Notes: generated by a model from the sequence alone, not told the origin. Positions 10,252 to 64,000 are shown, numbered from the stretch's first letter. The stretch is 64,000 nucleotides of DNA from Escherichia phage ukendt (NC_052661.1), one strand, 5' to 3'. Numbers and translations: made by a program.

Positions 10252-12062
10252 AGATGTTTCTCCCTTTGCAAAACTTCCTGCATTTTACCTTTGTTATAAG
10301 GCCGTGAATTAGGGGCAGAAAGATACCCTGATACACGTCTAACTACAGAAATAGTTTCTTCTTCATGGTTGCCACAATTAGGACACTCAAACCCTTTAGC
10401 CGTTGCCTTAAATTCTCCATGAAAACCACACTTAAAGCATTGATCCACGGGCTGATTAATACCAAAATAGTGAATATGTTCATAAGCGTAGTCTACTAAA
10501 GTCTCCAAAGCTTCTAAGTTATTCTTTAAGTTTGGTGTTTCGACATAACTTATGTTACCACCATTGCTAATCTGTGCAAAACCTGCTTCATAATCCCATT
10601 TTTCAAAAGGATTTGTTACCAACCATACAGGTTGATGAAAAGAATTAGTAAGATAATCTCTTTCTACCAGACCTGGATATTTTTCATTTAAAGCTGTTGC
10701 AAATTTATAGCACAAGGATTCTGCTGGAGTTCCATAAAGACTAAATGCCAACTTAGATCGTTCTTTAAACACAGCACACACATCTTTCATATGTTGCAGA
10801 ATGTTTTTACCTAGTGCCTTTTTATCTTTTTCCTCTGGATAAAGGATTTCCAAAGCTTCGGCAAGACCTACATAACCAATACTAATAGAAGCATAACCAC
10901 CTTCAAACAAAGCACCAATTTCATCGTTGGCATTTAAACGCGCTAAAGCCCCTTCCATGAAAAGAATAGGGTTTTCAGATGCTTTGGTATGTCTGATACG
11001 GTTTACACGTAGCATGTGAGCATCGTAGGCTATCTCCATATGTTTATTAAGAAGATCGGTGAAAGATTCTCCTTTACTTCTCGCTTCCGCAGCAATCAGA
11101 GGCAAGTTGATAGAAACTACTCCAAGGTTGAATCGTCCATCATATTTTTCTCCTTGTTCGGTGGCATAGTACGACAAAAAGGAACGACAACCCATACTCG
11201 TAACAGTACCATCTGCTGATCCCGTAACTTCTTTGTTCAAAGGAACAGAAATAAAGTCTGGATAAATACGATCAGCACAACATGCCAAAGCTTGTTGCTT
11301 AAGGTCATAGTTAGGATCACTAGGTTTCATGTTAACGCCTTCTTGTAAAAAGAAAATAACTTTAGGGAATACAGGCGTTACATGATCTTTGCCTAGACCA
11401 TTACTATGCACTTTAAGATAGTTAGCTGTGATCATTCTGCCAAAAACAGAGGTATCCAGACCCATACTGATTGTAATAAAAGGAGATTGTCCATTTACAC
11501 TCATTAAAGTATTAACCTGATACAAGAGAGTTTGCATAGCATCATATACATCTTGTTCGGTCATTTCCAGGGCTTCTTTCCTTGCATAACAGCCGTAGCG
11601 ACGTTTGGTTATCTCCATGTTTTTAAGGAAACTAGCTTCAACATAAGGACTAAGACCTTTATCAATGTGCGCACACGTTTGACCTCCATACTGACTGGAG
11701 GCAACAGCTTGAATGATTTGAGTTAGCACTGTAGTAGCTACCCCAATAGATTTTGGTTTTTCTATCTGTGCGGCTCCGATCTTAAAACCATTCTCTAACA
11801 TATCTTGATAATTAACAAGACAACAGTTTGTAAGAGGAGAGAGCAGATAATCCAAGTCGTGAATATGCCCAAAACCTTCTGTATGCCATTCTGACAAGTT
11901 TTTTGGCAGTATCTGTGTCATTGCCATATGTTTGCTTAAAATCCCCGCCAAGAGATCCCTATGCGTGTTAACGAGGTGGGAAGGTTTATTTGCATTCTCT
12001 CTAGTGTATGTTTCTGAAGTGCGATCTAAAAAAGAAAAAACATCTTGGTACAAATCTTTCAT
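10248..12062 (-). CDS. nrdD: anaerobic ribonucleoside-triphosphate reductase (class III)
   Basis: 604 aa; C-terminal glycine-radical motif RRVSGYL preceded by CxxC..CxxC zinc ribbon. Confidence 0.85.
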   Translation of the reverse strand: MKDLYQDVFSFLDRTSETYTRENANKPSHLVNTHRDLLAGILSKHMAMTQILPKNLSEWHTEGFGHIHDLDYLLSPLTNCCLVNYQDMLENGFKIGAAQIEKPKSIGVATTVLTQIIQAVASSQYGGQTCAHIDKGLSPYVEASFLKNMEITKRRYGCYARKEALEMTEQDVYDAMQTLLYQVNTLMSVNGQSPFITISMGLDTSVFGRMITANYLKVHSNGLGKDHVTPVFPKVIFFLQEGVNMKPSDPNYDLKQQALACCADRIYPDFISVPLNKEVTGSADGTVTSMGCRSFLSYYATEQGEKYDGRFNLGVVSINLPLIAAEARSKGESFTDLLNKHMEIAYDAHMLRVNRIRHTKASENPILFMEGALARLNANDEIGALFEGGYASISIGYVGLAEALEILYPEEKDKKALGKNILQHMKDVCAVFKERSKLAFSLYGTPAESLCYKFATALNEKYPGLVERDYLTNSFHQPVWLVTNPFEKWDYEAGFAQISNGGNISYVETPNLKNNLEALETLVDYAYEHIHYFGINQPVDQCFKCGFHGEFKATAKGFECPNCGNHEEETISVVRRVSGYLSAPNSRPYNKGKMQEVLQREKHL

Positions 12063-27254: not shown

Positions 27255-27310
27255 TATTTTAACTTTTTTCATTTTTAGAACAAAGGTGTCACTTTGTAGC
27301 ACAGAAATAA

Positions 27311-27345
27311 GGCTCCTACAGCACCGTAGAGAGCCTGTTATTTTA
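27311..27345 (+). terminator. rho-independent terminator after the NADAR gene
   Basis: GGCTCCTAC...GTAGAGAGCC hairpin followed by TGTTATTTTA. Confidence 0.45.
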
Positions 27346-27496
27346 TCCTATACAAACCCTTGTCTTTTTCAGTTTGCATCACTAGGATTCGATCTGAGTG
27401 GGTTCCTGAAGGTCTGCCAATAAGATTAAAGGTTATCTCAAATTCCCACTACCTATTATCTCAAAAATCCCTCAAATTATTTAAACTTTTTAAGAA

Positions 27497-27536
27497 TTTA
27501 CAAAAGTGAAAGTTGAAAACCAAAATTTAAAGTTTA
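27497..27536. repeat. direct repeat, copy 1 (TTTAAAGTTTA-containing unit)
   Basis: TTTACAAAAGTGAAAGTTGAAAACCAAAATTTAAAGTTTAG, imperfectly repeated at 27636. Confidence 0.5.
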
Positions 27537-27635
27537 GGAAAATTATCTTAAAATGTTAGATACAAAACAAAACTCAAAAGTCAAGGAAAATTTTAAAAAT
27601 TTTGCGCGCCCACAGTATTTAAAGTTTTTTTGCTT

Positions 27636-27675
27636 TTACAAAAATGAAAGTACAAAAGCAAAATTTAAAGTTTAC
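27636..27675. repeat. direct repeat, copy 2
   Basis: TTTACAAAAATGAAAGTACAAAAGCAAAATTTAAAGTTTAC. Confidence 0.5.
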
Positions 27676-27722
27676 AAAAATTTTTATGCAGGTGAAAATG
27701 AGAAGAGTTCTCATATGGAAAT

Positions 27723-27745
27723 GCAAATGATAATGATTCGCATTT
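27723..27745. promoter_or_regulatory. Fur-box-like operator (site A)
   Basis: GCAAATGATAATGATTCGCATTT, about 14 of 19 to the Fur consensus, 60 bp upstream of site B. Confidence 0.4.
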
Positions 27746-27761
27746 AAGTTTATAAATGAGA

Positions 27762-27803
27762 TTGATTCTTATTTAATAAGGTAAATGATAATCATTCTCA
27801 TTT
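27762..27803 (+). promoter_or_regulatory. promoter with Fur-box-like operator across the -10 (site B)
   Basis: TTGATT, 18 nt, TGATAAT; palindrome AAATGATAATCATTCTCATTT matches the Fur consensus GATAATGATAATCATTATC at 16 of 19 positions. Confidence 0.5.
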
Positions 27804-28021
27804 AGAGAATGACGCGCAGGGGCGGTGTTTGTCTCGCGCTCCCGTGTCCCCTCGCCATGTAATAAGAATAACAGATCCAGCCAGGAAAGCAAGAGATTAT
27901 TTTATCTTTACATTTCTTTACAAATATATAGCGCCCAGCCTACCGGCGATCAACCTTCCAACCAGTGCCTCTGGTATGTTAGCCCCGCCTTTACGCCGTG
28001 GGGTGGCGCTTCCTCTTCTGT

Positions 28022-28056
28022 ATGTAAAACAGTATAAGCCCGATCCCTGGGCTTGT
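28022..28056 (-). promoter_or_regulatory. sigma70-like promoter reading leftward into non-coding DNA
   Basis: On the minus strand: TTGACA, 17 nt (AGCCCAGGGATCGGGCT, itself a hairpin), TATACT. Confidence 0.4.
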
Positions 28057-28061
28057 CAAGA

Positions 28062-28328
28062 TTATTTTTTGTTTTCTTGCCAGGATAGGACACCTAACCA
28101 AAAATACATATCGCCCCGCGCCCCTGGTGGTATCTTGCTTTCCCCGCCGCCACTGCAAGCCCATAGATAACCATTTGCGAACGTATCAAAATGATCTATC
28201 TCTTCCACCTTATGATCGCCCAGGTTGAGAACGGTTTCAACCTTTAAGCCCGTTGCGCTTGCTACCTGGTGCACCGTGCCGCCTTGCCAGCCCAATGAGT
28301 GCATAAGGTGTAATGTAGTATTTGTCAT
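28062..28328 (-). CDS. hypothetical protein (divergent gene at left edge of cassette array)
   Basis: 88 aa ORF in GC-richer DNA; GC hairpin about 30 nt upstream of its ATG. Confidence 0.4.
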   Translation of the reverse strand: MTNTTLHLMHSLGWQGGTVHQVASATGLKVETVLNLGDHKVEEIDHFDTFANGYLWACSGGGESKIPPGARGDMYFWLGVLSWQENKK

Positions 28329-28437
28329 GGTATCGCCCTTTCTTTGATGTGCGCCCTGGTTGGCGCGGTAGAAAGATGATAGCCCTTTCTTTTATATATA
28401 GCAAGCAAAAAGAAAATAAAAAAGATTGAAAAAGTGA

Positions 28438-28496
28438 TTGACGTTCGCCAGGTGGCGGCATAATATTTACCACGTAGGGCGGCAATGGTGCCGCTC
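28438..28496 (+). promoter_or_regulatory. cassette promoter + 5' hairpin module
   Basis: TTGACG, 17 nt, TAATAT, then ACGTAGGGCGGCAATGGTGCCGCTCA hairpin. Confidence 0.55.
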
Positions 28497-31772: not shown

Positions 31773-31795
31773 ACAACAGAAGAGAGATTATCACG

Positions 31796-32011
31796 ATGGC
31801 TAATATCCGCACTTTACTGAAAAATGCAAGTCAAGTTTTATTTTCAGATGACGAGTATTTCAATAAAGACATTACAGGCGTGAAAAATTTAAAAGACGTG
31901 AAGGATGTTATCGGTATTCGTGGATCTTTACGTAAAGGTGATTACTATGGTAACAAGGTGCAATATAAACTGTCAAAGGATTACAATTTTACTTTGACAA
32001 TTATTTCATAA
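31796..32011 (+). CDS. cassette small protein
   Basis: 71 aa; promoter-hairpin module. Confidence 0.5.
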   Translation: MANIRTLLKNASQVLFSDDEYFNKDITGVKNLKDVKDVIGIRGSLRKGDYYGNKVQYKLSKDYNFTLTIIS

Positions 32012-32017
32012 AACCGC

Positions 32018-32077
32018 TTGCAATACTGCAAAAATAAAGTAAACTATATTCATCAAGGCGGGGAATGGTCCGCCGCC
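32018..32077 (+). promoter_or_regulatory. cassette promoter + 5' hairpin module
   Basis: TTGCAA, 16 nt, TAAACT, then GGCGGGGAATGGTCCGCCGCC hairpin. Confidence 0.5.
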
Positions 32078-32101
32078 TAACAAAGAGAAGAGGAAAACAT
32101 C

Positions 32102-32275
32102 ATGATCACTTTCGCTACCCGTGAAGCCGCTCGCAACGTTGCACGTAAAGTTAACGCCGCCAACCTGGGCGCTACACTTAAAGCCCCGGTGAAAGATGAA
32201 TCAGGCAAATGGATCTTCCCTGGTCTGCGTCATGCTGACAAGTTAGGTACTTTAAGCCTTAAAAATAATCGTTGA
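32102..32275 (+). CDS. cassette small protein
   Basis: 57 aa ORF not in track; promoter-hairpin module. Confidence 0.4.
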   Translation: MITFATREAARNVARKVNAANLGATLKAPVKDESGKWIFPGLRHADKLGTLSLKNNR

Positions 32276-32309
32276 CTTTTCGTTATAGCGCCTTACAATG
32301 GGCGCTATA
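32272..32309 (+). promoter_or_regulatory. variant cassette promoter with palindrome across the -10
   Basis: TTGACT, 16 nt, TACAAT, embedded in TATAGCGCC...GGCGCTATA inverted repeat. Confidence 0.45.
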
Positions 32310-32342
32310 GAGAAGAGAAACCACTATTAACAAGGAAACATC

Positions 32343-32564
32343 ATGATTACTTTTGCTATTGTCGCCGTTGTTGCTGGTCAGGTTTACGTAAATGATACAT
32401 TCACCACAGAAGACAAGGCAGCAGGAGACATCACCGCCGCTTATAATGAGTGCAAGGCAGTAGAAAGGATGTTAGCGCCTTGTATGCTAATGAGTGAACG
32501 CCAGGACGGAATAACAGTATTTACTAACATTGAAACAGGGTACCAAATGGTAGTAACAAAATAA
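32343..32564 (+). CDS. cassette small protein
   Basis: 73 aa; variant promoter with palindrome. Confidence 0.5.
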   Translation: MITFAIVAVVAGQVYVNDTFTTEDKAAGDITAAYNECKAVERMLAPCMLMSERQDGITVFTNIETGYQMVVTK

Positions 32565-32567
32565 AGC

Positions 32568-32624
32568 TTGACACCGATTTAATTTTTAGTAAACTGTTAC
32601 ACGTAGGGCGGGAATAGTTCCCGC
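32568..32624 (+). promoter_or_regulatory. cassette promoter + 5' hairpin module
   Basis: TTGACA, 16 nt, TAAACT, then GCGGGAATAGTTCCCGC hairpin. Confidence 0.55.
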
Positions 32625-32643
32625 TCAAAAAGAGAGAAAGACC

Positions 32644-32997
32644 ATGAAAGCACAAAATGCAATTAAAGAGTACATCCTTGCCGCTATCGATTTTAATGAT
32701 TACGGTATTACAACCGAAAAAGAGAAGATCGCGGAATTGATGCGCCGTTTTAATTCCGAGTACTGGTACCCTGATAACCAATCACGTTTTAATTATAGTA
32801 TTGTTAAAGCACTTGCATCATGGTTACAAGGCTTGCCATCAGATATCAATATCGCTTTCGAATATTGGGAAATTGATCGCCTGTTAACATCCTGGGGATA
32901 CATTAAAGAGAATAGCAGCGATGATAAAATCCAACGAGAAAGGGAAAATTATTGGCTTTATATTGCAGGCGTGATCCTTGCTTGCTCTTATGAATGA
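32644..32997 (+). CDS. cassette small protein
   Basis: 117 aa; promoter-hairpin module. Confidence 0.5.
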   Translation: MKAQNAIKEYILAAIDFNDYGITTEKEKIAELMRRFNSEYWYPDNQSRFNYSIVKALASWLQGLPSDINIAFEYWEIDRLLTSWGYIKENSSDDKIQRERENYWLYIAGVILACSYE

Positions 32998-33003
32998 TAA
33001 ACC

Positions 33004-33058
33004 TTGACAATTTTACAAAACAGTTTAAATTAACAATATAGCGGCAATGGTGCCGCTC
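33004..33058 (+). promoter_or_regulatory. cassette promoter + 5' hairpin module
   Basis: TTGACA, A/T-rich -10 region, then GCGGCAATGGTGCCGC hairpin. Confidence 0.5.
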
Positions 33059-33076
33059 ATATGAAGAGGAAACAAA

Positions 33077-33223
33077 ATGAATACATCTAATCGCGCAGAA
33101 AAAATTCAATCTTCCAAGATCCGCAAGGCCTGGAACGAGGAAGTGATCCGCAAAGGCGACAAGCGCAATAAAACAAAGCGCGGGAAGAGTGACAAATATA
33201 ATTGGATGGATTTAGAGGATTAA
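33077..33223 (+). CDS. cassette small basic protein
   Basis: 48 aa Lys/Arg-rich; promoter-hairpin module; followed by terminator. Confidence 0.4.
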   Translation: MNTSNRAEKIQSSKIRKAWNEEVIRKGDKRNKTKRGKSDKYNWMDLED

Positions 33224-33230
33224 CATAACA

Positions 33231-33257
33231 AGGGCGCATCAAGCGCCCTTTCTTTTT
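33231..33257 (+). terminator. rho-independent terminator inside the cassette array
   Basis: AGGGCGC-ATCAA-GCGCCCT followed by TTCTTTTT. Confidence 0.6.
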
Positions 33258-33278
33258 ACATGTAGAGGATAAACAAAA

Positions 33279-33464
33279 ATGATTTTAAACGAGCTTAAAA
33301 CAGCCTACAACGCAACATTAAAAATAGCCGTGCGTTACCGTGATGCGTACGGTTTTATCGCGCAGGGCGTGATCCTGGGCTTTTCTGACGATGGTTTGAT
33401 CTATGTTGATGCACATCACAACAAGGTTAAACCGGAAAACGTTATCAATATAAAATATCTTTAA
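33279..33464 (+). CDS. cassette small protein
   Basis: 61 aa; RBS GAGGA. Confidence 0.45.
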   Translation: MILNELKTAYNATLKIAVRYRDAYGFIAQGVILGFSDDGLIYVDAHHNKVKPENVINIKYL

Positions 33465-33470
33465 AAGTGG

Positions 33471-33527
33471 TTGACACCATAACCGGACCTGTTAAACTGT
33501 ATTACATCAGGCGGGGAATAGTTCCCC
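33471..33527 (+). promoter_or_regulatory. cassette promoter + 5' hairpin module
   Basis: TTGACA, 16 nt, TAAACT, then GGGGAATAGTTCCCC hairpin. Confidence 0.55.
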
Positions 33528-33550
33528 CACCATACAAAAAGGTAAATATT

Positions 33551-33757
33551 ATGATCACCGCAAAACAAGAAAAAATCATTATCGACGTTGCAGCCGTTGC
33601 CGCTATTGCTATTATTGGATCTTATTATGATACCCGTTTCCCGTCGGCTATGCATGAGATCGCCGCCGTTGCATCAGTCGGCGTGCTGTTTTACGTTGGT
33701 AAACGCTATTTATCACCAATGATTAACAAGCTGACACCGTGGAAAAATAAAGGTTGA
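33551..33757 (+). CDS. cassette small membrane protein
   Basis: 68 aa; promoter-hairpin module; start refined to 33551. Confidence 0.5.
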   Translation: MITAKQEKIIIDVAAVAAIAIIGSYYDTRFPSAMHEIAAVASVGVLFYVGKRYLSPMINKLTPWKNKG

Positions 33758-33810
33758 TCCTGTTTTATATTGTGTTATAGTTATCGTGTAGGGCGGCAAT
33801 GGTGCCGCGC
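33754..33810 (+). promoter_or_regulatory. cassette promoter + 5' hairpin module
   Basis: TTGATC, 16 nt, TATAGT, then GCGGCAATGGTGCCGC hairpin. Confidence 0.5.
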
Positions 33811-33829
33811 CCCCTTTGAGGATGAAATC

Positions 33830-34114
33830 ATGAGTAAAGCTAACACCGTGCTAATGTTTTCCCTGATTAATGATCCCGCTTACTTGTCCAACATGACGCA
33901 GGAGGGTAACACATTAACGGCAACATTCACCAATAAGCTTGACCGAGTGATCATCATCTCACTGAAAACAGTTAGTAAAGGCTTTTACTCGTTAGCTTAT
34001 CATTGGATCACCGATACCGATGAGACAAGCCAGGACTATAGCGCCCCTTTCCCTGAATCAATGGCACGGGAGATCATCGCCGCCGTTGTAAATGATGGTT
34101 TGTTTACTGCATAA
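33830..34114 (+). CDS. cassette small protein
   Basis: 94 aa; shares 25-nt initiation region with gene at 24955. Confidence 0.5.
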   Translation: MSKANTVLMFSLINDPAYLSNMTQEGNTLTATFTNKLDRVIIISLKTVSKGFYSLAYHWITDTDETSQDYSAPFPESMAREIIAAVVNDGLFTA

Positions 34115-34131
34115 ATAATTTAGAAAAAGGC

Positions 34132-34188
34132 TTGCAATCATTTTGAGATAGTGTATATTTAATTCATAGGGCGGCGGGAATAGTTCCC
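34132..34188 (+). promoter_or_regulatory. cassette promoter + 5' hairpin module
   Basis: TTGCAA, 16 nt, TATATT, then GGGAATAGTTCCC hairpin. Confidence 0.5.
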
Positions 34189-34211
34189 AAAGCAAACGAG
34201 AGGATTACACG

Positions 34212-34330
34212 ATGAGCAAGTACACAGTAGAATACACGGTAGAAAATCCGGCAGTATCCGAAGGTAAAAAGATGACATTTGCCATCAGTATAATCGCTTT
34301 CGTTGTCACTATCTTATCAATCATCTTATA
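34212..34330 (+). CDS. cassette hydrophobic peptide
   Basis: 39 aa with C-terminal TM segment; promoter-hairpin module. Confidence 0.35.
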
Positions 34331-34341
34331 AGGTGCACACC

Positions 34342-34503
34342 ATGAAAACAACAGATATTATCAAAGAGATCGCCCTTGCCGCTGGCGTTGAGATCGAGGA
34401 AGTGATCGCGCTCAATCTTACAGAAAACGATCTGCGCAACTATGAAGCGGAAAGCGTGAAAGCAAGCGGTGCGATCCTGGCATATAATCCGGCTAACAAG
34501 TAA
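34342..34503 (+). CDS. cassette small protein
   Basis: 53 aa ORF. Confidence 0.35.
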   Translation: MKTTDIIKEIALAAGVEIEEVIALNLTENDLRNYEAESVKASGAILAYNPANK

Positions 34504-34512
34504 GGGGATAAC

Positions 34513-34623
34513 ATGAATCCGAAAGATATGCAAGCATGGAAAGGGTACGACGATCTGAGCGCCTTGCGTAATAAGTCCAGCCGTAACCTTAGACGATTGC
34601 AAGCAAAGAAAAAGAAAAAATAG
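34513..34623 (+). CDS. cassette small basic protein
   Basis: 36 aa ending KKKKK. Confidence 0.3.
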   Translation: MNPKDMQAWKGYDDLSALRNKSSRNLRRLQAKKKKK

Positions 34624-34624
34624 T

Positions 34625-34682
34625 TTGACAAGTCCGCTTAATCTGATAATATGTATCTTGTAGGGCGGCAATGGTGCCGCTC
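34625..34682 (+). promoter_or_regulatory. cassette promoter + 5' hairpin module
   Basis: TTGACA, 16 nt, TAATAT, then GCGGCAATGGTGCCGC hairpin. Confidence 0.55.
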
Positions 34683-34701
34683 ACAAGAAGAGAGAAAAAT
34701 C

Positions 34702-34986
34702 ATGAAAATCACAAAAAGCCTAACTAATTATGCAGCACGTCGCGGATTATGTTTAACCGTTGAAAACTTAGGGAAAGAAGACTTTTTGTGTTTTTGGGAG
34801 CTTGAAAACGATTGCGAGTGGATGTTTTCCTATTCTATCTGCGAAGATCAAAACGGTTGTTTGTTAACCTGGCGCGGTAATATTTATTTACCGGAAGAAA
34901 TTAAAGAGGAATTACCAGGTACGATCATGACAGAGAGACAGCTTAAGGAAATGATTAATTTTGTAGGGCAAAACATTAAAAAATAA
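34702..34986 (+). CDS. cassette small protein
   Basis: 94 aa; promoter-hairpin module. Confidence 0.5.
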   Translation: MKITKSLTNYAARRGLCLTVENLGKEDFLCFWELENDCEWMFSYSICEDQNGCLLTWRGNIYLPEEIKEELPGTIMTERQLKEMINFVGQNIKK

Positions 34987-34987
34987 T

Positions 34988-35050
34988 TTGACAGCACGCA
35001 AACAACGTAGTAAAGTTTACCACATAGGGCGGCGGAATGGTCCACCGCTC
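34988..35050 (+). promoter_or_regulatory. cassette promoter + 5' hairpin module
   Basis: TTGACA, 17 nt, TAAAGT, then GGGCGGCGGAATGGTCCACCGC hairpin. Confidence 0.55.
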
Positions 35051-35071
35051 ACAACAGAAGAGAAACAAATC

Positions 35072-35242
35072 ATGATCCCGACTATGTTTTATGTATCGCG
35101 CAAAGGTCACAATATTTTTTGGTCTGAAGATTTAAATGAAGCCATGACGTTTGCCCGTGATCGTGTTGCTATCGGTGGCGTTAACATCACCGTAACCGAT
35201 GAAAATGGCATTGAATACTATAACGGCGACGATGAAGAGTAA
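35072..35242 (+). CDS. cassette small protein
   Basis: 56 aa; promoter-hairpin module. Confidence 0.45.
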   Translation: MIPTMFYVSRKGHNIFWSEDLNEAMTFARDRVAIGGVNITVTDENGIEYYNGDDEE

Positions 35243-35249
35243 TTAATGA

Positions 35250-35267
35250 GGCGGGGAGTACCCCGCC
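35250..35267 (+). promoter_or_regulatory. cassette-type GC hairpin without recognisable -35/-10
   Basis: GGCGGGGAGTACCCCGCC, 20 nt upstream of the ATG at 35287. Confidence 0.4.
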
Positions 35268-35286
35268 GTCAATAAAGAGGTAAATC

Positions 35287-35556
35287 ATGAAAATATCATT
35301 GGACGTTGCAATCAAGGCCATCGAATCCGGTTACATCCTGGTAAAAGATGATAAGGCTAAAATAGTGCATCATGTTAACAAGGAAACAGGCGAGAGCATG
35401 ATCACATATAAAGCCGCCTACTTTCTCCAATCAGTAGCAGATCCGCGCGTACAACGCCAGGTTACAGCGGCTATTGCTAAAAAATTATGTGCTTTACAGG
35501 GTGCAAGTTTTAACGAGATTGCCCCGTGTTTTGAGTGGTCAAGCTTGAAAAAATAA
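35287..35556 (+). CDS. cassette small protein
   Basis: 89 aa; preceded by GC hairpin only. Confidence 0.5.
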   Translation: MKISLDVAIKAIESGYILVKDDKAKIVHHVNKETGESMITYKAAYFLQSVADPRVQRQVTAAIAKKLCALQGASFNEIAPCFEWSSLKK

Positions 35557-37840: not shown

Positions 37841-37855
37841 ATAACATTTCATACC

Positions 37856-37882
37856 AGGGCGCACAAAGCGCCCTTTCTTTTT
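37856..37882 (+). terminator. rho-independent terminator at the right end of the cassette array
   Basis: AGGGCGC-ACAAA-GCGCCCT followed by TTCTTTTT; near-identical to the terminator at 33231. Confidence 0.6.
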
Positions 37883-38019
37883 GCCCGAACAATGTTGATA
37901 GCTTTCGCCTATGAAAAACCGACACAGAACAAAACTGAATAAATCACGGTATCAAGCTAATCGACCATTAAACGAATAACCATACATCCCAGGGCAACAG
38001 GCTGTTAGAGAGCTATTTA

Positions 38020-38360
38020 GAGCGGTTAAAATCGATCAACAACCAACAACAAACCATCAAAAACACCCTTTTACCTCCTTTCTAGTGCAATGATAACCAT
38101 TATCATCTACCCATGATTATCTATGCAATATAAGCGCATAATTATAATGTTGATAATAGTTCGCAACAACTAACCAACAAACAACATAAAACAATAAGCA
38201 AACTAATCATAATCAAAGGAATAATAGCAAGATGATTGATAACGACAAACAATCAAACCATGATGAATACTAAGCAAAACAACGATAACACGACAAAACA
38301 ACCAACTAACGAACAATAACAAACGAAACCATTAAAATAACAACTATTAGCAAAATAGTG
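38020..38360. repeat. A+C-rich low-complexity tract with AAC/CAA repeats
   Basis: Long runs such as CAACAACCAACAACAAACCATCAAAAACACCC with almost no G on the plus strand and no ORF. Confidence 0.55.
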
Positions 38361-38489
38361 CCTAAATGAAATCATTACAAAACGAATCATTCACAGGATC
38401 ATCATTAGCACGCTATGCCGGACACATAGCGAGCTAATAATAAGCCAACTACACCCCAACAATCATAACCATCGGTGACGGTTATTTCT

Positions 38490-38520
38490 TGTTACTGCGT
38501 AGCTTGCAATAATTGCAAGC
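38490..38520. repeat. perfect palindrome CTTGCAATAATTGCAAG
   Basis: 17-bp inverted repeat within the non-coding region. Confidence 0.45.
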
Positions 38521-38843
38521 GTAATGACGCTTACACTTATTGCGCTGGCTTATTATTAGCATTATATGTAATTACCAAGATCATAACATTAGCGCAATAA
38601 CAATAATCATTGTGGTAATTACAAGATGAAATCATTAGCAAGATGAATAATTGCACGTAGCAACATGAGCGAATAGCGACAGGTTGCATAGTGTGCACAT
38701 AGTGTATAAACATACAAGAAAATAAAGGCTAATCTTTTGGGGGCGAATACTATCGCGTAGCGATATGTTGAGCACCTTCTCTTAAACGTAAATAAAATCA
38801 GAAAATTCTTGATTTATTTTAGTTTTTATGTTAATAAACGTTT

Positions 38844-38864
38844 AAATAATAATCATTCTCATAT
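38844..38864. promoter_or_regulatory. Fur-box-like operator (site C)
   Basis: AAATAATAATCATTCTCATAT shares the core AATCATTCTCAT with sites B and D. Confidence 0.4.
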
Positions 38865-39002
38865 AAATAATAGTCTGCTTGTCATGAGCGGGATTAGTTG
38901 ACAATGTTCCGTCATATGATGAAGTTGCCAAACCATTGATAAATAAGTGTTTGTGTGATTTATAATCAAGTGGCCCACCTTGTCGCTATGTTGGCATGAG
39001 CC

Positions 39003-39044
39003 TTGCATAAGTCATTGAATACGAATGATAATTATTCTCATTCG
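39003..39044 (+). promoter_or_regulatory. promoter with Fur-box-like operator across the -10 (site D)
   Basis: TTGCAT, 17 nt, TGATAAT; palindrome CGAATGATAATTATTCTCATTCG. Confidence 0.5.
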
Positions 39045-39374
39045 CATGATATTTGGGAATTGTCGCTGCGTGGACCTGACGGCCCGAAAATTCGCGTTAA
39101 GCACTTCTTACGTATGCGCCATGATTTTTGCCATATGATATTGATTCTATTAGATATTCTTGCCATGAAACAAGGTGTGTCGAAATAATCTCTCCCCGTA
39201 GATATTTTGGGTTACTTTTTATACAAGAGTGGGGTGTCAAAAATAATCGGTATATATGGGATAATTGATAGGAATCCCCTATGGTAATTCGATTGTAATT
39301 CCTTAAGATTGATCGTATGATGTTGGTGATTGATGATTGCCATGAAAGATGGCTAACGATGAGAGGAGATTGTC

Positions 39375-43625: not shown

Positions 43626-43940
43626 ATGTCAGAAGAACTTAAAGAATTTTATCAGGCATATCATAACTGGCTGTTAGCTGGTGCTCCAGATAATAATCCT
43701 TTCTGGCACGATAAAGGGTTATGTAGTTGCCTCTACCTTTGGACTGGTGGTTACGATGATCTAAATTATGAAATGCAAATGCAATTTCGAGAAGCAGGGT
43801 TGTCTGAAGAATACCCGTTTGATGACGGGGACAGGTTTAAATATGATTTTGCACAAAGAAACGGGCTGCTACATTTGAATGCTGCCCGTATAAAATGGGT
43901 AAAAGATCATGCTACACAGGAGGATGTGCAATGCCTATAG
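43626..43940 (+). CDS. family A paralog (WVKDR motif)
   Basis: 104 aa; WLLAGAPDNNPF...GLCSCL...RIKWVKDH. Confidence 0.55.
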   Translation: MSEELKEFYQAYHNWLLAGAPDNNPFWHDKGLCSCLYLWTGGYDDLNYEMQMQFREAGLSEEYPFDDGDRFKYDFAQRNGLLHLNAARIKWVKDHATQEDVQCL

Positions 43941-46607: not shown

Positions 46608-46880
46608 ATGAATAAAGATCGGTTTCTTTCTTTAGTCGCGGAAGCGCCTTTTGATGTTCTTGGGGTGAGATTATGGAAAGACAGAAACTATGGGTTAGAT
46701 GTTCAAACATATTCTCTTTGGTTGGTTGGGGAGCACAGCTTAGATGAAAGCTTGTGCATGGGTAGGGATTCTCGTTCCCTTTGTTTAAAGTTCAGAAGCT
46801 TAGAACGCGCAAACAAAGAGCAAGAAAAACTAACGAGGTGGCTAAATGAAAACAAGCACAGGGTTGATGGAGTTTTATAA
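46608..46880 (+). CDS. hypothetical protein
   Basis: 90 aa ORF. Confidence 0.5.
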   Translation: MNKDRFLSLVAEAPFDVLGVRLWKDRNYGLDVQTYSLWLVGEHSLDESLCMGRDSRSLCLKFRSLERANKEQEKLTRWLNENKHRVDGVL

Positions 46881-47172
46881 AATTTATCTAGCATGGATTG
46901 ATGTTGGTGCTCCTGATGGTAAACCTTTTCGGCGGGATTGTGGTTTGTGTGCCAACTTGTTCGATTATGTGCACAGAGGTAATTACAACCCCATTATAAC
47001 AACCTTGTCAGATGAAATGCACGCACAGTTTTACCATAAAGGGTTGAATCAAGGACTCCCTTTCAATGAGAACTACGATGCATATGTCTTAGAGTCAGAT
47101 GCAGATGCCTGTCACCTGAACGTGGACAGAATTAATTGGGTAAGAGATCGTATTGCAGAGGAGGATGAATAA
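46846..47172 (+). CDS. family A paralog (WVKDR motif)
   Basis: 108 aa; WIDVGAPDGKPF...GLCANL...RINWVRDRI. Confidence 0.55.
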   Translation: MKTSTGLMEFYKIYLAWIDVGAPDGKPFRRDCGLCANLFDYVHRGNYNPIITTLSDEMHAQFYHKGLNQGLPFNENYDAYVLESDADACHLNVDRINWVRDRIAEEDE

Positions 47173-48781: not shown

Positions 48782-48994
48782 ATGAAGGCACATTACCCTC
48801 ATCCCTTTGATCCTAAAAACAAAGCCGTAATTCTTCGTCAGTGGCAACGGGTTTGTCGTACTAAATGTCCAATTAATAGCCAACACAATGTGGACAAGGA
48901 TTATCTTGGGACATTTGTTGAATACACTTACATAGACAAAAACAAGCGTAAACAACATGTCGAGGAATACTGCTTAAAAGTAGAATGGCTGTAA
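48782..48994 (+). CDS. hypothetical protein
   Basis: 70 aa ORF. Confidence 0.45.
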   Translation: MKAHYPHPFDPKNKAVILRQWQRVCRTKCPINSQHNVDKDYLGTFVEYTYIDKNKRKQHVEEYCLKVEWL

Positions 48995-49064
48995 ATAATA
49001 AATACCTTGACAAGTGTTTATTCGTTTTGTAAAGTGAGAATACAGCAATGGTTTAGGAGTGGTT

Positions 49065-49736
49065 ATGAAAAAGTTTGTTGTTTACAGTCGTCTTTCTAAA
49101 CAGAAAAAAGGTGAGGCACAATATGGTATGGAGAGCCAAGAGAACGATATCCGTTACTTCTTAGACTCTGTGCCTGACGCTGAAGTTATTGGTCAATTTT
49201 CTGAATACTATTCGGGTAAGGGCGATTGGAAGCAACGTAAGGAACTGGTTAAAGCGGTTGAAATGTGTAAAGCTACCGGAGCAACTTTATTGGTAGCTAA
49301 AGTTGACCGCTTGGGTCGTAACAACGCCTCCGTAGCAACTCTCCTAGAAATGATCGATGTTAAGATAGCCATCATGCCAGACGCAGATAAAATGGTTATA
49401 CAGCTTCTGTCTGTTTTGGCTGAACAAGAAGTTAGAGGTATTGCTGATCGTATTAAAAAGGGTCTTGCTGTAGCAAAAAGCAAAGGTGTTTTATTAGGCA
49501 GTGCTAATCCTAAAACTGCCGCTGCACGTAGAAAAGGAAAAATGGAATACAACTCTGTTAAAGCAGACGCTTTTGCAGAGACATTCCGTGAACGCTTGGA
49601 GATCCTTAGAGATTTAAATACACCTTACAAAACTATTGCTGAAAAATTTAATAGTAAGAAAATAGCAACAGCACGTGGTGGTAAATGGGATGCTAAGACT
49701 GTTTCTCGTTTGTGTGCCAGACTGAACATTAAATAG
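49065..49736 (+). CDS. serine recombinase (resolvase/invertase family)
   Basis: Catalytic-region motifs VVYSRLS and VAKVDRLGRN; C-terminal HTH-like segment; start refined to ATG 49065. Confidence 0.6.
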   Translation: MKKFVVYSRLSKQKKGEAQYGMESQENDIRYFLDSVPDAEVIGQFSEYYSGKGDWKQRKELVKAVEMCKATGATLLVAKVDRLGRNNASVATLLEMIDVKIAIMPDADKMVIQLLSVLAEQEVRGIADRIKKGLAVAKSKGVLLGSANPKTAAARRKGKMEYNSVKADAFAETFRERLEILRDLNTPYKTIAEKFNSKKIATARGGKWDAKTVSRLCARLNIK

Positions 49737-49744
49737 GAGAGGAT

Positions 49745-50167
49745 ATGAAACAAGAAAATGAATCTGTAGATCACTTAATCATGCTGTCAGCCCTTTTTGC
49801 AGGATGGGACGTATTTTTTGAAAATTTGTTCAATTCTGCTACAGATGGTTCCGATTTTATGCGCCAGTTTAAACGACGAACTGTTGAGGACTATGCTTTC
49901 TATTCAGGTCGGATTGAAAAAGGTTACGAAGATACAAATACAACACTCACCATTAAAGTTTTAGATGTGATGTTTAGTGTTATAGATGCTATCGACGAAA
50001 GTCTTCCGATCCTAGACAATTGTAATACGAAAGCCTATGTTTACAAAATAGCTCGTGCTTATGTGTCTGCAAACAGTTGCCTTCTTTCCACCCAGATTGC
50101 CGTGAACAATCTTGCCAACTTGTTCGATGAAGGAGAAACTTTTTATGACAATCGATTTGAAGTGTAA
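49745..50167 (+). CDS. hypothetical protein
   Basis: 140 aa ORF. Confidence 0.5.
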   Translation: MKQENESVDHLIMLSALFAGWDVFFENLFNSATDGSDFMRQFKRRTVEDYAFYSGRIEKGYEDTNTTLTIKVLDVMFSVIDAIDESLPILDNCNTKAYVYKIARAYVSANSCLLSTQIAVNNLANLFDEGETFYDNRFEV

Positions 50168-50510
50168 GAGGATTCTTTTAGATTTCTATAATAATTGGTT
50201 AGAACACCTCCGTCTCTTTCCAAGAGAAAGTGGTTACGCTGATGTTGGCTTATGCCGAGGTCTACGTATGTATATAAGTGATGAATTTCGGGCCGAGCAT
50301 TCTTTAGCATATTCTGTTTATGGTATGCAATTAGCCAGTTTTGAAAACGCTGGCTTAGATACAACTTTCCCATTTAACACAGCAAAATCTTTTGAGCAAG
50401 AGTGTAAGGAAAAACGTTGCATGTTTAATGAAAAACGTGTACAGTGGGTTAAGGATCGAGTTAAACAACTGGAACAAGAGTTGGATTTCTTCTATGATGA
50501 GGCAGAATAA
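50145..50510 (+). CDS. family A paralog (WVKDR motif)
   Basis: Start refined to ATG 50145; GLCRGL...FPF...RVQWVKDRV. Confidence 0.5.
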   Translation: MTIDLKCKRILLDFYNNWLEHLRLFPRESGYADVGLCRGLRMYISDEFRAEHSLAYSVYGMQLASFENAGLDTTFPFNTAKSFEQECKEKRCMFNEKRVQWVKDRVKQLEQELDFFYDEAE

Positions 50511-51398: not shown

Positions 51399-51404
51399 TA
51401 GTTG

Positions 51405-51430
51405 CACCCCGTTCTGCGGGGTGTTATTGT
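51405..51430 (+). terminator. rho-independent terminator
   Basis: CACCCCG-TTCTG-CGGGGTG followed by a T-rich tract. Confidence 0.5.
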
Positions 51431-51449
51431 ATATGTAAAGGAGGCGCTA

Positions 51450-51788
51450 ATGTATTACACTGAAGACTACATATTGTATAACTTTTTTAAAGGTTGGTTG
51501 AAATGGGCGGAACAAGCTCCTGTCGGAGATTGTGTTTTTCCTTGGGATTCTCGTCAAGGCTTGTGTCGTTGTTTGGAAGATTGGCTTATAACCACAAACT
51601 ACAATTCAGAAACTAAGAAATCTACATCAAACAGATTAAAAATGTTATTTGAAGAAGATGGTTTAGATCCAATTTATCCTTTCGGTGCTGAAAGCTTCCA
51701 CAATAGTCTTTTTCTTGGCACTCAACATTATGACAAAGATCGCGTAGATTGGGTAAAAGAAAAGGTAGCACAGTATGAATGGGGCTAA
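51450..51788 (+). CDS. family A paralog (WVKDR-like motif)
   Basis: Start refined to ATG 51450 after AAAGGAGG; GLCRCL...YPF...RVDWVKEKV. Confidence 0.5.
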   Translation: MYYTEDYILYNFFKGWLKWAEQAPVGDCVFPWDSRQGLCRCLEDWLITTNYNSETKKSTSNRLKMLFEEDGLDPIYPFGAESFHNSLFLGTQHYDKDRVDWVKEKVAQYEWG

Positions 51789-55902: not shown

Positions 55903-55925
55903 AACCCGCTTCGGCGGGTTTTTTC
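55903..55925 (+). terminator. rho-independent terminator
   Basis: AACCCGC-TTCG-GCGGGTT followed by TTTTC. Confidence 0.6.
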
Positions 55926-60622: not shown

Positions 60623-60650
60623 ATAAAAAACCCGCCGAAGCGGGTTATTA
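60623..60650 (-). terminator. rho-independent terminator
   Basis: AACCCGC-TTCG-GCGGGTT followed by TTTTTTATTG on the minus strand. Confidence 0.6.
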
Positions 60651-62404: not shown

Positions 62405-62999
62405 TTGTTATTGCCCTCATTACCAAAGGTCGTAGAAAATCGTAAATCTCTTGTTTTGTTTTCCCACGAATGTTTAAACAAGGAACATTATTGGCTTTAG
62501 CTATCTTCCAAGCCGTAGCTGTTCCGCCTTTTGCATCCCCATGTTTATCAGTATTAGCACAAGCCAACAAGAAACACGATGGAGCAGGATTCTCCAAATC
62601 TCTGCCTAACACCTGATGCACATTACGTTGGTGCAATTTTCTAGCACCCTGCTTAAGCTTTTCATAAGCTGGGTGAACATCTTTGATCCATTGCACAGAG
62701 ATAGCATAGTTCATTGTATCTGGTTTTGCAAGAACAATAACATCACCTGGAATCTGATTACCTTTGAAATTTTCCCAAGGAACATAAATCTCCTTGTTAG
62801 TAGGATTTTCAGACTCTTGGACACCTGTTTCAAAAGCAGAATCACTACCCTCTGCCTTCCCAGACCTTAATTTAAACCCAAGGTTTGAAAGCCATTTCCC
62901 TATGCCTACCATCAAAGCCCACTCTTCTTCAGATATATCTCTACTTCCAACTCCCGTATAGAACAGTTCTGCCATAATCACCTCAACAAGTAATTTCAA
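62394..62999 (-). CDS. DprA/Smf-like Rossmann (SLOG superfamily) protein
   Basis: 201 aa; GVGSRDIS, LRSGKAEGSDSAFETG and GGTATAWKIAKANNVP resemble DprA nucleotide-binding loops. Confidence 0.4.
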   Translation of the reverse strand: MKLLVEVIMAELFYTGVGSRDISEEEWALMVGIGKWLSNLGFKLRSGKAEGSDSAFETGVQESENPTNKEIYVPWENFKGNQIPGDVIVLAKPDTMNYAISVQWIKDVHPAYEKLKQGARKLHQRNVHQVLGRDLENPAPSCFLLACANTDKHGDAKGGTATAWKIAKANNVPCLNIRGKTKQEIYDFLRPLVMRAITSDS

Positions 63000-63291: not shown

Positions 63292-64000
63292 TAATCCTCC
63301 TCAAGAGTTGAATAAAATTGAAGACCACCGTCCATATCGAAATAAGCAAATGTTAAGTTATTATTGAACACAGATCCAGTATCCATATAAACACGATTCG
63401 CATTGATAATAGGTGTTTTTACATAAGAGTGTCCATGGAACACATAGTCCACACCCATCACAACAGGAAGTTTCATTCCCTCTTTAGCACAGTCCACCAT
63501 ATCTCTGTCCCACATAAGTGCTTCAGCAAAACGGTTTTCCTGTGTTTTTGTCATCTTCAAAGTGTATTCTGGAATATCTGTTACAGGGAGATATTCCAAA
63601 GAAGATGGATACCCACCATGAATAAACGCAAGTTTCATGCCTCTGTAGTTAACAATGAGAACAACAGGTAAATCTTCTGTCATCATTGCTAAGGCTGTAG
63701 CTCCTTCTTCACCACATTCTTCAAGGACTGTATATCCTCCATTTTGATACCAACACTCGAAGTAGCTACGATCTCCTTCCAGCATACCTTTAATCATCAT
63801 GTCTTCATGATTTCCACGAATAGCGTAGCGATTGTGTTTACGAGTAAATTCTAAAACACAACGAAAGTTTTGCTTTCCACGGTCAGTAAGATCTCCTAAA
63901 GATACAACTACATCTGTATCTCGGATACCTAACTTTGCCTTTCCTTTTTCATACAAATTATAACAACCGTGTAGATCTCCAATTATAAAAAGATCTTGAT
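63291..64000 (-). CDS. Ser/Thr protein phosphatase (calcineurin-like metallophosphoesterase), partial
   Basis: GDLTDRG and GNHE motifs; frame stays open past 63956 and encodes GDLHG near the window end, so the true start lies beyond 64000. Confidence 0.6.
   Translation of the reverse strand, partial: QDLFIIGDLHGCYNLYEKGKAKLGIRDTDVVVSLGDLTDRGKQNFRCVLEFTRKHNRYAIRGNHEDMMIKGMLEGDRSYFECWYQNGGYTVLEECGEEGATALAMMTEDLPVVLIVNYRGMKLAFIHGGYPSSLEYLPVTDIPEYTLKMTKTQENRFAEALMWDRDMVDCAKEGMKLPVVMGVDYVFHGHSYVKTPIINANRVYMDTGSVFNNNLTFAYFDMDGGLQFYSTLEED

Follow-up and report, generated by a model that had tools for sequence, protein, structure and literature searches.

The recombinase gene and its product

The DNA analysed here, referred to below as the window, is a stretch of 64,000 nucleotides from Escherichia phage ukendt (NC_052661.1), which carries on its plus strand, at positions 49065-49736 with the stop codon included, a gene for a small serine recombinase of 223 amino acids. 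The coding sequence is supported by the list of open reading frames (ORFs) and by matches to the families PF00239 of Pfam and 125 of PHROG. The mechanically called ORF runs from a GTG at 49059 to 49736; the likely start is the ATG at 49065, preceded at a distance of 5 nt by a ribosome-binding site, AGGAG, read from the sequence (49055-49059, plus strand), and the stop codon occupies 49734-49736. An antisense ORF lying wholly within the gene (49208-49552) is without support. The family itself is already known, and several GenBank records already label the gene as a serine recombinase. What the present comparisons add is that this is a conserved gene of a whole virulent subfamily, that it has relocated, that its DNA-binding module has been swapped between relatives, and that the invertase and integrase readings are excluded.

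The assignment to the resolvase/invertase type, first made from the motifs VVYSRLS (residues 5-11) and VAKVDRLGRN (residues 77-86), holds. The protein matches the Resolvase family PF00239 over residues 5-142 (E=5.2e-18, 66 bits against a cut-off of 23.3) and PHROG 125, labelled 'DNA invertase' (E=2.6e-32). Among solved structures, the single sequence finds Tn3 and gamma-delta resolvase, while a profile of 48 sequences finds Gin (2e-17), Tn3 and gamma-delta (both at ~1e-15) and Sin (1e-14). By these sequence-based scores, the family matches far exceed chance. In NCBIfam no family reached its cut-off for this protein, so that there is no equivalog, and PADLOC returned no match and no anti-defence annotation. 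The names given to the gene in GenBank vary from 'hypothetical', 'DNA invertase', 'serine recombinase' and 'resolvase' to 'methionine ABC transporter ATP-binding protein', the latter being the only feature under the recombinase match in the records of Mt1B1_P17 and AV125. The upstream gene of 70 amino acids with a DUF7202 domain (48782-48994) is similarly named 'putative ABC transporter ATP-binding protein' in records of the ESCO5 type, an instance of annotation errors that propagate.

Residues 1-146 (49065-49502, plus strand) make up the catalytic domain and the long E-helix, as delimited from alignments, an AlphaFold2 model and the profile. The residues crucial for catalysis in Tn3 resolvase are Y6, R8, S10, D36, R68 and R71 (PMC2794168), which correspond here to Y7, R9, S11, E47, R82 and R85, with position 47 being always D or E. 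Ser11 (codon TCT, 49095-49097, plus strand) is the predicted nucleophile, as its alignment with gamma-delta resolvase makes it the equivalent of S10 in gamma-delta and Tn3, the residue whose role was described in the same study. Loss of catalytic residues, which the original prediction had named as the observation that would speak against it, was looked for in alignments of 20 and 48 family members, with identities down to ~32%. None is lost in the larger alignment, where Y7, R9, S11, Q25, R58, D81, R82 and R85 are invariant, and in the family alignments conservation reaches 90% or more at E120, E122 and R129 in the E-helix. On these alignments the active site is intact, and the enzyme is predicted to be catalytically competent. 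The AlphaFold2 model (mean pLDDT 89) consists of a beta-alpha catalytic core and a long helix at residues 109-139, the E-helix aligns with that of gamma-delta resolvase, and in Foldseek the catalytic domain matches Sin and TP901-1.

The remaining residues, 147-223 (49503-49733, plus strand), form a predicted helical DNA-binding module, with helices in the model at 149-172, 175-183, 188-197 and 210-219 and a weak match to the PF07508 'Recombinase' family (residues 187-216, profile columns 19-48 of 102). The module bears the PF07508 motif IA..LN..G..T.RGG.W...V. In Pfam there is no match to HTH_7, the Hin-type helix-turn-helix (HTH). Full-length Foldseek matches are found only with large serine recombinases (Bxb1, SPbeta-type and phiC31), and the profile extends into the C-terminal module only for Bxb1, SprA and, in part, Sin. 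These resemblances relate the module, which is longer than the HTH of Hin or gamma-delta, to the opening part of the 'recombinase domain' found in large serine recombinases. The C-terminal HTH of the original prediction is thus retained as a helical DNA-binding module, but not as one of the Hin type. Used alone as a query against a collection of 5.8 billion proteins, the module found nothing.

The two domains have had different histories. Between the gene type of the window and that of phage phiWec179, the first ~450 nt are 81% identical, with a ratio of non-synonymous to synonymous substitution rates (dN/dS) of 0.03-0.04. Nucleotide homology ends near codon 145-150, and in the C-terminal part the proportion of non-synonymous differences (pN) is 0.45 and dN/dS is ~0.78. 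The comparison indicates that the DNA-binding module was exchanged by recombination at the domain border between close relatives, and therefore that DNA specificity differs in close relatives.

Upstream of the gene, a consensus scan locates a putative sigma70-type promoter, TTGACA-17 nt-TAAAGT, at 49007-49035 (plus strand, 10/12 matches). This promoter is conserved together with the gene in phages of the phiWec179 type, where homology begins ~68 nt upstream of the ATG, and analogous promoters precede the orthologs in alia, Klebsiella phi1_175008, Shewanella 1/40 and ICP1. Early expression by the host RNA polymerase from the gene's own promoter is what this arrangement suggests. The original placement in an early gene block agrees with these data, as the recombinase lies within a 35-kb block of small genes on the plus strand; the next gene begins 8 nt past its stop, with no terminator after it.

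Distribution, selection and relocation of the gene

The window is 97-99% identical to phAPEC8-like phages, that is, to the genus Phapecoctavirus of the subfamily Stephanstirmvirinae, virulent myoviruses of E. coli with genomes of ~150 kb, and it is collinear with the genome of ESCO5. In 61 phage records the recombinase protein has an identity of 99% or more. Identity is ~74% in phiWec179 and phiWec190, 57% in Justusliebigvirus and 52-55% in Klebsiella Stephanstirmvirinae, and it decreases further to 35-38% in Vibrio 1.063.O and Shewanella 1/40 and to 30% in some ICP1 isolates. The gene is found in ~70 records of the Phapecoctavirus type and can be regarded as essentially universal in this genus, since that count is comparable to the 63 records that hold a neighbouring core gene, the DprA-like gene, at 95% identity or more. 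Compared with ESCO5 and G1, pN is 0 and the corresponding synonymous proportion (pS) is 0.10-0.13, that is, 10-13% synonymous differences with zero amino-acid changes. These figures point to strong purifying selection on the gene in a lytic lineage, and the distribution points to a vertically inherited, near-universal gene of the Stephanstirmvirinae and related virulent myoviruses.

All isolates have been described as lytic (PMC10269720, PMC10282059), and one of these papers guesses in passing that the recombinase keeps 'concatemers as single molecules' (PMC10282059). The statement that ESCO5 has no recombinase gene (PMC10269720) is incorrect. Among the more distant homologs, the 30%-identical one of the ICP1 isolates (DRC 2017) has its own promoter and sits in an isolate-specific accessory island between gp30 and gp41 (2017_DRC_48, MW794144, 2745-7094), absent from the classical gp numbering. 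Its neighbours are of unknown function, save one with a PHROG match to 'virion structural protein'.

The genomic position of the recombinase has changed during the evolution of the group. The orthologs of Justusliebigvirus and of phages infecting Klebsiella, Shewanella and Vibrio are housed in a conserved block. Its order, as read from alia, Klebsiella phi1_175008, Shewanella 1/40 and Vibrio 1.063.O, is PhoH, HslV-like peptidase, (methyltransferase), two small genes, recombinase, small gene, (HisRS-like), phosphatase, DprA-like, rIIA/rIIB. Searches of the window by tblastn with the neighbours from alia and Shewanella 1/40 locate the DprA-like gene at 62421-62975 and the Ser/Thr phosphatase gene at 63294-63998, both on the minus strand. 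The ancestral slot lies just past the end of the window (10309-10353 in Ro121c4YLVW), between the equivalents of gp213 and gp212, and consists of 45 nt that hold only a terminator hairpin. From this synteny, the recombinase has left its ancestral slot and now resides ~13 kb away on the opposite strand, the promoter having moved along; the small downstream gene of the slot did not relocate with it.

At its present position, the immediate neighbours of the recombinase differ in every lineage examined, and all are small phage genes of unknown function, so that a partner or cargo role for them has no support. There is no transposase, transposon end or TnpB-like gene among these neighbours. The gene is flanked on both sides by paralogous small early proteins (43626-43940, 46846-47172, 50112-50510 and 51402-51788), which belong to PHROG 2510, of unknown function, end in ..V(D/N/Q)WV(K/R)(D/E)(R/K).. 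and have further copies in phiWec179.

The original prediction had also considered a mobile-element remnant. This does not fit a gene that is intact, near-universal and under purifying selection, although it did move as a single-gene cassette in the course of evolution. Taken together, the intact active site, purifying selection, universality, the conserved neighbourhood and retention after relocation argue for a function in the lytic cycle.

Several records matching the window bear unexpected host labels. Those of Campylobacter phage B15 (MG065650), Acinetobacter phage ABPW7 (OP562383) and Klebsiella phage ZCKP1 (MH252123) have 96-98% nucleotide identity to the window, while Campylobacter phage C3 (MG065656) groups by its matches with Justusliebigvirus and phage D# (MG065647) with rV5-like coliphages. 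The host labels of these five records look doubtful, or the records contaminated.

Recombination sites, rearrangements and non-coding elements

The absence of flanking inverted repeats, noted by eye in the original prediction, was confirmed computationally in the window, in ESCO5 and in the 3' half of the gene. Within the 64-kb window there is no convincing inverted site pair: terminators aside, the best pairs are 73-85% complementary, which is the chance level. A perfect 22-nt inverted pair, AACCCGCTTCGGCGGGTTTTTT (55903-55924 and 60625-60646), was rejected because both of its copies are themselves terminator hairpins located where blocks meet. Across the complete genome of ESCO5, no recurring dyad-symmetric motif exceeds the Markov controls except terminators, and the only significant repeats are terminators and the direct promoter-stem-loop units of the early region. 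A perfect 22-bp inverted pair at ESCO5 7448 and 108498 was discarded as well, as it lies inside two genes and is not dyad-symmetric. For neither DNA-binding allele did the 3' half of the gene or the sequence after it show dyad symmetry, and no terminal repeats or target duplications flank the recombinase.

Searches closer to the gene were also negative. No res composed of two or three subsites for dimer binding was detected immediately upstream, where the 70-nt gap holds the promoter; the corresponding gaps in other lineages measure 10-37 nt. A 26-bp quasi-palindrome over the -35 box (48997-49022) was considered as an operator or crossover site and rejected, since its right arm is unconserved in orthologs although the promoter is conserved. 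This quasi-palindrome is absent from two phages of the same DNA-binding type and has no second copy in the window. No attP or attB for the recombinase was found.

Neither rearranged nor integrated forms are apparent. Collinearity extends over 25 kb around the recombinase in ~60 public genomes, structural and tail-fibre genes are all on one strand, and no inversion or deletion isoforms occur among public genomes. A megablast of the gene and its flanks against the chromosomes and plasmids of 5,426 complete E. coli genomes returned no match to an integrated or episomal form, and the ESCO5 annotation contains no repressor or lysogeny module. As there is no inverted pair, isoform or integrated copy, the invertase and integrase readings are not supported.

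An exception to this collinearity is found among four records labelled 'complete genome'. WPEC1, 2, 4 and 6 (PV659873, PV691511, PV682947 and PV763039; 155-161 kb) each match the window at 10-12 separate places, and WPEC1, the only one examined in detail, is built of blocks resembling ESCO5 whose order and orientation are scrambled, and it has many tiny coding sequences. It was rejected as an isoform: its junctions are unique and unshared even by its siblings, and it has many internal duplications, for which reasons it is treated as probably a chimeric assembly.

The early region contains repeats of other kinds. A unit of 55-60 nt, AAAAA..TTGACA-17-TAAGAT-like..CACATAGGGCGGC(loop)GCCGC, is directly repeated at least 13 times between 28400 and 36450; every repeat is an early promoter followed by a GC stem-loop, and the repeats separate small gene cassettes. 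About 3.7 kb of such cassettes (31793-35548) is present in the window and absent from ESCO5, in which one unit is perfectly duplicated in tandem over 55 bp. The units resemble the 'PeSL' shuffling cassettes of T4-type phages. They are unlikely as recombination sites, as the promoter hexamers are conserved and the stems vary with compensatory changes.

Four tandem palindromes, AAATGA(G/T)AAT-N-ATT(C/A)TCATTT, lie 29 bp apart at 27696-27804, and further copies occur in the next large non-coding region (38089-38107, 38845-38863 and 39024-39042). Matches to the palindrome amount to 6 sites against 0.08 expected and are highly non-random; its core is the same as the 7-1-7 Fur-box motif. The array is conserved in phiWec179, in rV5-like phages and within the annotated left terminal repeat of T5-like phages, and its sequence looks like a host-factor binding array common to unrelated virulent coliphages. 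As a res-like target of the recombinase it was rejected, given its odd-length centre, the unchanged motif in phiWec179 despite the swapped DNA-binding module, and its occurrence in phages that lack the recombinase gene, namely rV5 and, within the left terminal repeat, the T5-like phages.

Two non-coding regions stand out besides these repeats. Within the region at 27255-28440, a stretch at 27810-28330 is unusually GC-rich for a genome of 39% GC and is preceded by AT-rich direct repeats of 72 nt (27473 and 27611); sequence around 27719-28030 is 70-75% conserved in Vequintavirinae and in Cronobacter, Salmonella, Klebsiella and Pectobacterium phages. The GC-rich stretch may be a non-coding RNA, an origin or another cis element; Rfam gave no match over the whole window. 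The second region, of 1.5 kb (37850-39370), contains A/C-rich periodic repeats of 128 nt, Fur-box-like sites and the inverted repeats 38424-38447 and 38546-38569. Many independent records of the genus begin inside it, with position 1 of ESCO5 corresponding to 39024 of the window and the starts of Ro121lw, Schickermooser and others to ~38771, and it may mark a pac site or a physical end.

Candidate functions and comparison with known systems

The role that we tentatively favour is a resolvase-type reaction on the phage's own DNA, either cyclising the terminally redundant injected DNA or reducing multimers to monomers. The original prediction had listed a resolution system for replication intermediates among its options, and of this the general idea stands as the best guess, while the site that it would require was not found. 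It is preferred on account of the closest full-length relatives, which are recombinases of plasmid maintenance regions. Full-length homologs, with 35-40% identity at 95% coverage or more and the C-terminal module included, occur on 124 plasmids, among them non-mobilizable plasmids of 5.8-6.5 kb from Klebsiella and Synechococcus; a tally by plasmid record gives 115. In pLM20P5 (Paracoccus yeei) and pMaD11 (Marinovum), the homologs lie between parA and repA, where plasmids usually carry their multimer-resolution genes. Since a resolvase requires one site per genome copy, this role fits the lack of any site pair.

Under such a mechanism, the host RNA polymerase would transcribe the recombinase from its own promoter right after infection, and recombinase dimers would bind one specific site on the phage DNA, presumably one per genome. 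Where two sites stand in direct repeat on one molecule, whether as copies contributed by the terminal redundancy of the injected headful genome or in early circular dimers and multimers, a tetramer would cut both with a 2-nt stagger through phosphoserine links to Ser11, then rotate and rejoin them so that the intervening DNA is deleted, the presumed direction of the reaction. The outcome would be fast cyclisation of the incoming DNA or the conversion of multimers into monomer circles. For the sibling phage Ro121lw (149.8 kb), PhageTerm predicts P1-like headful (pac) packaging and terminally redundant DNA (PMC6454146), and many GenBank records start ~10 kb upstream of the recombinase. Both the predicted packaging and the record starts are weak support for cyclisation or resolution.

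A number of observations weigh against a resolvase of this kind. No binding or crossover site was found in the window, in ESCO5 or in the upstream region, and the immediate neighbours differ per lineage, hence there is no conserved linked res site. The module swap is hard to reconcile with dependence on a fixed cis site, unless that site was transferred as well, and there is no dyad in or after the 3' half that could be such a co-moved site. Phages that package from concatemers have no obvious need for multimer resolution, and the pac position is a software prediction joined to a coincidence of record starts. As for the plasmid homologs, no experimental study of them was found in the literature, and the name 'resolvase' is an inference there as well.

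The same swap of the DNA-binding module bears on an alternative in which the recombinase acts in trans, as an early weapon that recognises the att or res site of an element resident in the host, be it a satellite, a plasmid, a prophage or a defence island. It would excise, invert, lock or break the element, or interfere with the element's own serine recombinase, to the benefit of the phage. A catalytic domain that is nearly identical (dN/dS 0.03-0.04) next to an exchanged module (~0.78) fits changing targets, and no cis site was found on the phage. Two chromosomal homologs border elements that resemble prophages or satellites, and one of these elements combines primase/DUF3987, GP3_package and the recombinase; the ICP1 homolog belongs to an isolate-specific accessory island. 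ICP1 fights satellites at their serine-recombinase att sites (PMC9638900), and anti-defence genes are found in the early regions of the phages studied here (bioRxiv 2024.08.21.608784). However, a protein that is near-invariant in 61 Phapecoctavirus records from many hosts is unlike a participant in a fast arms race, its ancient conserved synteny suggests a housekeeping role, and no target is known: PADLOC and annotation are silent on anti-defence, and the search with the C-terminal module found nothing. This alternative is considered unlikely, and the related proposal of an effector whose exchangeable DNA-binding module directs it to the att or res sites of host-resident mobile DNA rather than to the phage, so that it would excise, scramble or break that DNA or poison the serine recombinase of the element, quite unlikely. 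The relocation has a bearing on yet another possibility, namely that the gene is selfish, a mobile single-gene cassette with its promoter or a mobiliser of neighbouring early cassettes, with no role in the lytic cycle. The gene-precise absence from the ancestral slot and presence elsewhere on the opposite strand, with the promoter travelling along, agree with it, as do the neighbours that are mosaic per lineage and the early region, which contains direct promoter-stem-loop repeats and differs from ESCO5 by insertions and deletions of cassettes. Mobile defence cassettes of bacteria have been linked to small serine recombinases (PMC13552941). Selfish genes nevertheless tend to be patchy, whereas this one is near-universal in the genus and under strong purifying selection. 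Only one relocation is seen across the whole subfamily, flanking terminal repeats and target duplications are lacking, the mosaicism spans the whole early region and not just the surroundings of the recombinase, and the stem-loops vary with compensatory changes, like RNA or DNA hairpins and unlike sequence-specific sites. A selfish or cassette-mobilising nature is improbable.

The remaining explanations are less probable still. A domesticated DNA-binding protein, serving as a regulator of early genes or as an architectural factor with recombination secondary or unused, would agree with the gene's own early promoter and with the failure to find recombination sites; resolvases such as Tn3 and gamma-delta autoregulate by binding res. 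A pure DNA binder is disfavoured because residues needed only for chemistry would not be maintained, and here the catalytic residues, the nucleophile and those chemistry-only residues included, are invariant in the 48 sequences. We regard this explanation as distinctly improbable. Integration or persistence of the 'virulent' phage in some hosts by means of a small serine integrase is highly improbable: bacterial relatives do border prophage- or satellite-like elements, distant phage matches are annotated as integrases, and small resolvase-like serine integrases are known, for instance in Ralstonia phage phiRSM, but the 5,426 E. coli genomes hold no copy, there is no lysogeny module, and the isolates are described as lytic. 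Lastly, the original prediction had offered an invertible segment, which would make the enzyme a DNA invertase flipping part of the phage genome, for example to switch host range or expression, as Gin, Cin and Hin do. The best PHROG label ('DNA invertase') and the best structure profile (Gin) reflect similarity of the catalytic domain only. Neither the window nor ESCO5 has an inverted dyad-symmetric pair, the structural and tail-fibre genes keep to one strand, the ~60 independent genomes are collinear, and the C-terminal domain is not of the Hin type, so that this option is largely refuted and carries almost no weight.

These distinctions have practical consequences. A site-specific recombinase in a phage is normally taken to indicate lysogeny and serves as an exclusion criterion for therapeutic phages, and Phapecoctavirus and Justusliebigvirus are popular candidates for therapy and biocontrol. 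The safety flag raised by this recombinase is probably a false alarm, because it is a conserved, intact gene of a lytic subfamily, with no integration or inversion system detected and no copy in the E. coli genomes searched. If the favoured role in cyclisation or multimer resolution is true, virulent phages would have in this enzyme a counterpart of Cre from the serine-recombinase family. If host-resident mobile DNA is instead the target, it would represent a new kind of phage counter-measure, that is, recombination directed by virulent phages against mobile elements or defences. A compact enzyme of 223 amino acids with naturally swappable DNA-binding modules could interest recombinase engineers.

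Among known systems, the resolvases of the Tn3/gamma-delta and Sin/beta types share with the phage protein the catalytic domain, the E-helix, the catalytic residues, a similar size and the order of an N-terminal catalytic and a C-terminal DNA-binding domain, and the proposed reaction, deletion between direct sites, would be alike by analogy. Unlike Tn3- and Sin-type systems, the recombinase has no transposon or transposase context and no detectable multi-subsite res upstream, and its replicon is a virulent phage. Its C-terminal module, with ~75 amino acids, 4-5 helices and a PF07508-like character, also differs from the 40-amino-acid, three-helix HTH of Tn3 and gamma-delta. The plasmid 'recombinase family proteins' of pLM20P5 and pMaD11 are similar over their full length (35-40%) and are likewise encoded by a single gene without a partner gene. 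In contrast to the phage gene, they are located in the par/rep maintenance region, and the small plasmids have several hundred bp of non-coding DNA upstream.

The invertases Gin (Mu), Cin (P1), Hin and Pin resemble the recombinase as small phage-encoded serine recombinases and, through Gin (E=2e-17), provide the best profile for the catalytic domain. They differ from it in the C-terminal domain and in their inverted gix- or hix-like sites, which are dyad-symmetric, ~26 bp long and bound an invertible segment that normally adjoins the gene; the phage gene has neither such sites nor such a segment. The invertases, which also use a Fis-dependent enhancer, belong to temperate phages or cryptic prophages, whereas the recombinase belongs to a virulent phage. 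Large serine recombinases (Bxb1, phiC31, A118 and SprA of SPbeta) align with it through the C-terminal module and share the motif IA..LN..G..T..G..W...V, but they have 450-600 amino acids instead of 223, and the recombinase is without the rest of their recombinase domain, the zinc-ribbon domain and the coiled coil. IS607-type serine transposases, often accompanied by TnpB, have an N-terminal MerR-like HTH and a C-terminal catalytic domain, an order opposite to that found here, where there is also no TnpB-like neighbour. The Cre-loxP system of P1 cyclises terminally redundant, headful-packaged DNA, and P1, a temperate phage, needs dimer resolution for its plasmid prophage. By analogy, the role proposed for the recombinase would be a single-site one like that of Cre-loxP, cyclising headful DNA and resolving dimers, in keeping with the P1-like packaging predicted for a sibling phage. 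Cre itself is a tyrosine recombinase, unrelated to the present enzyme in family and chemistry.

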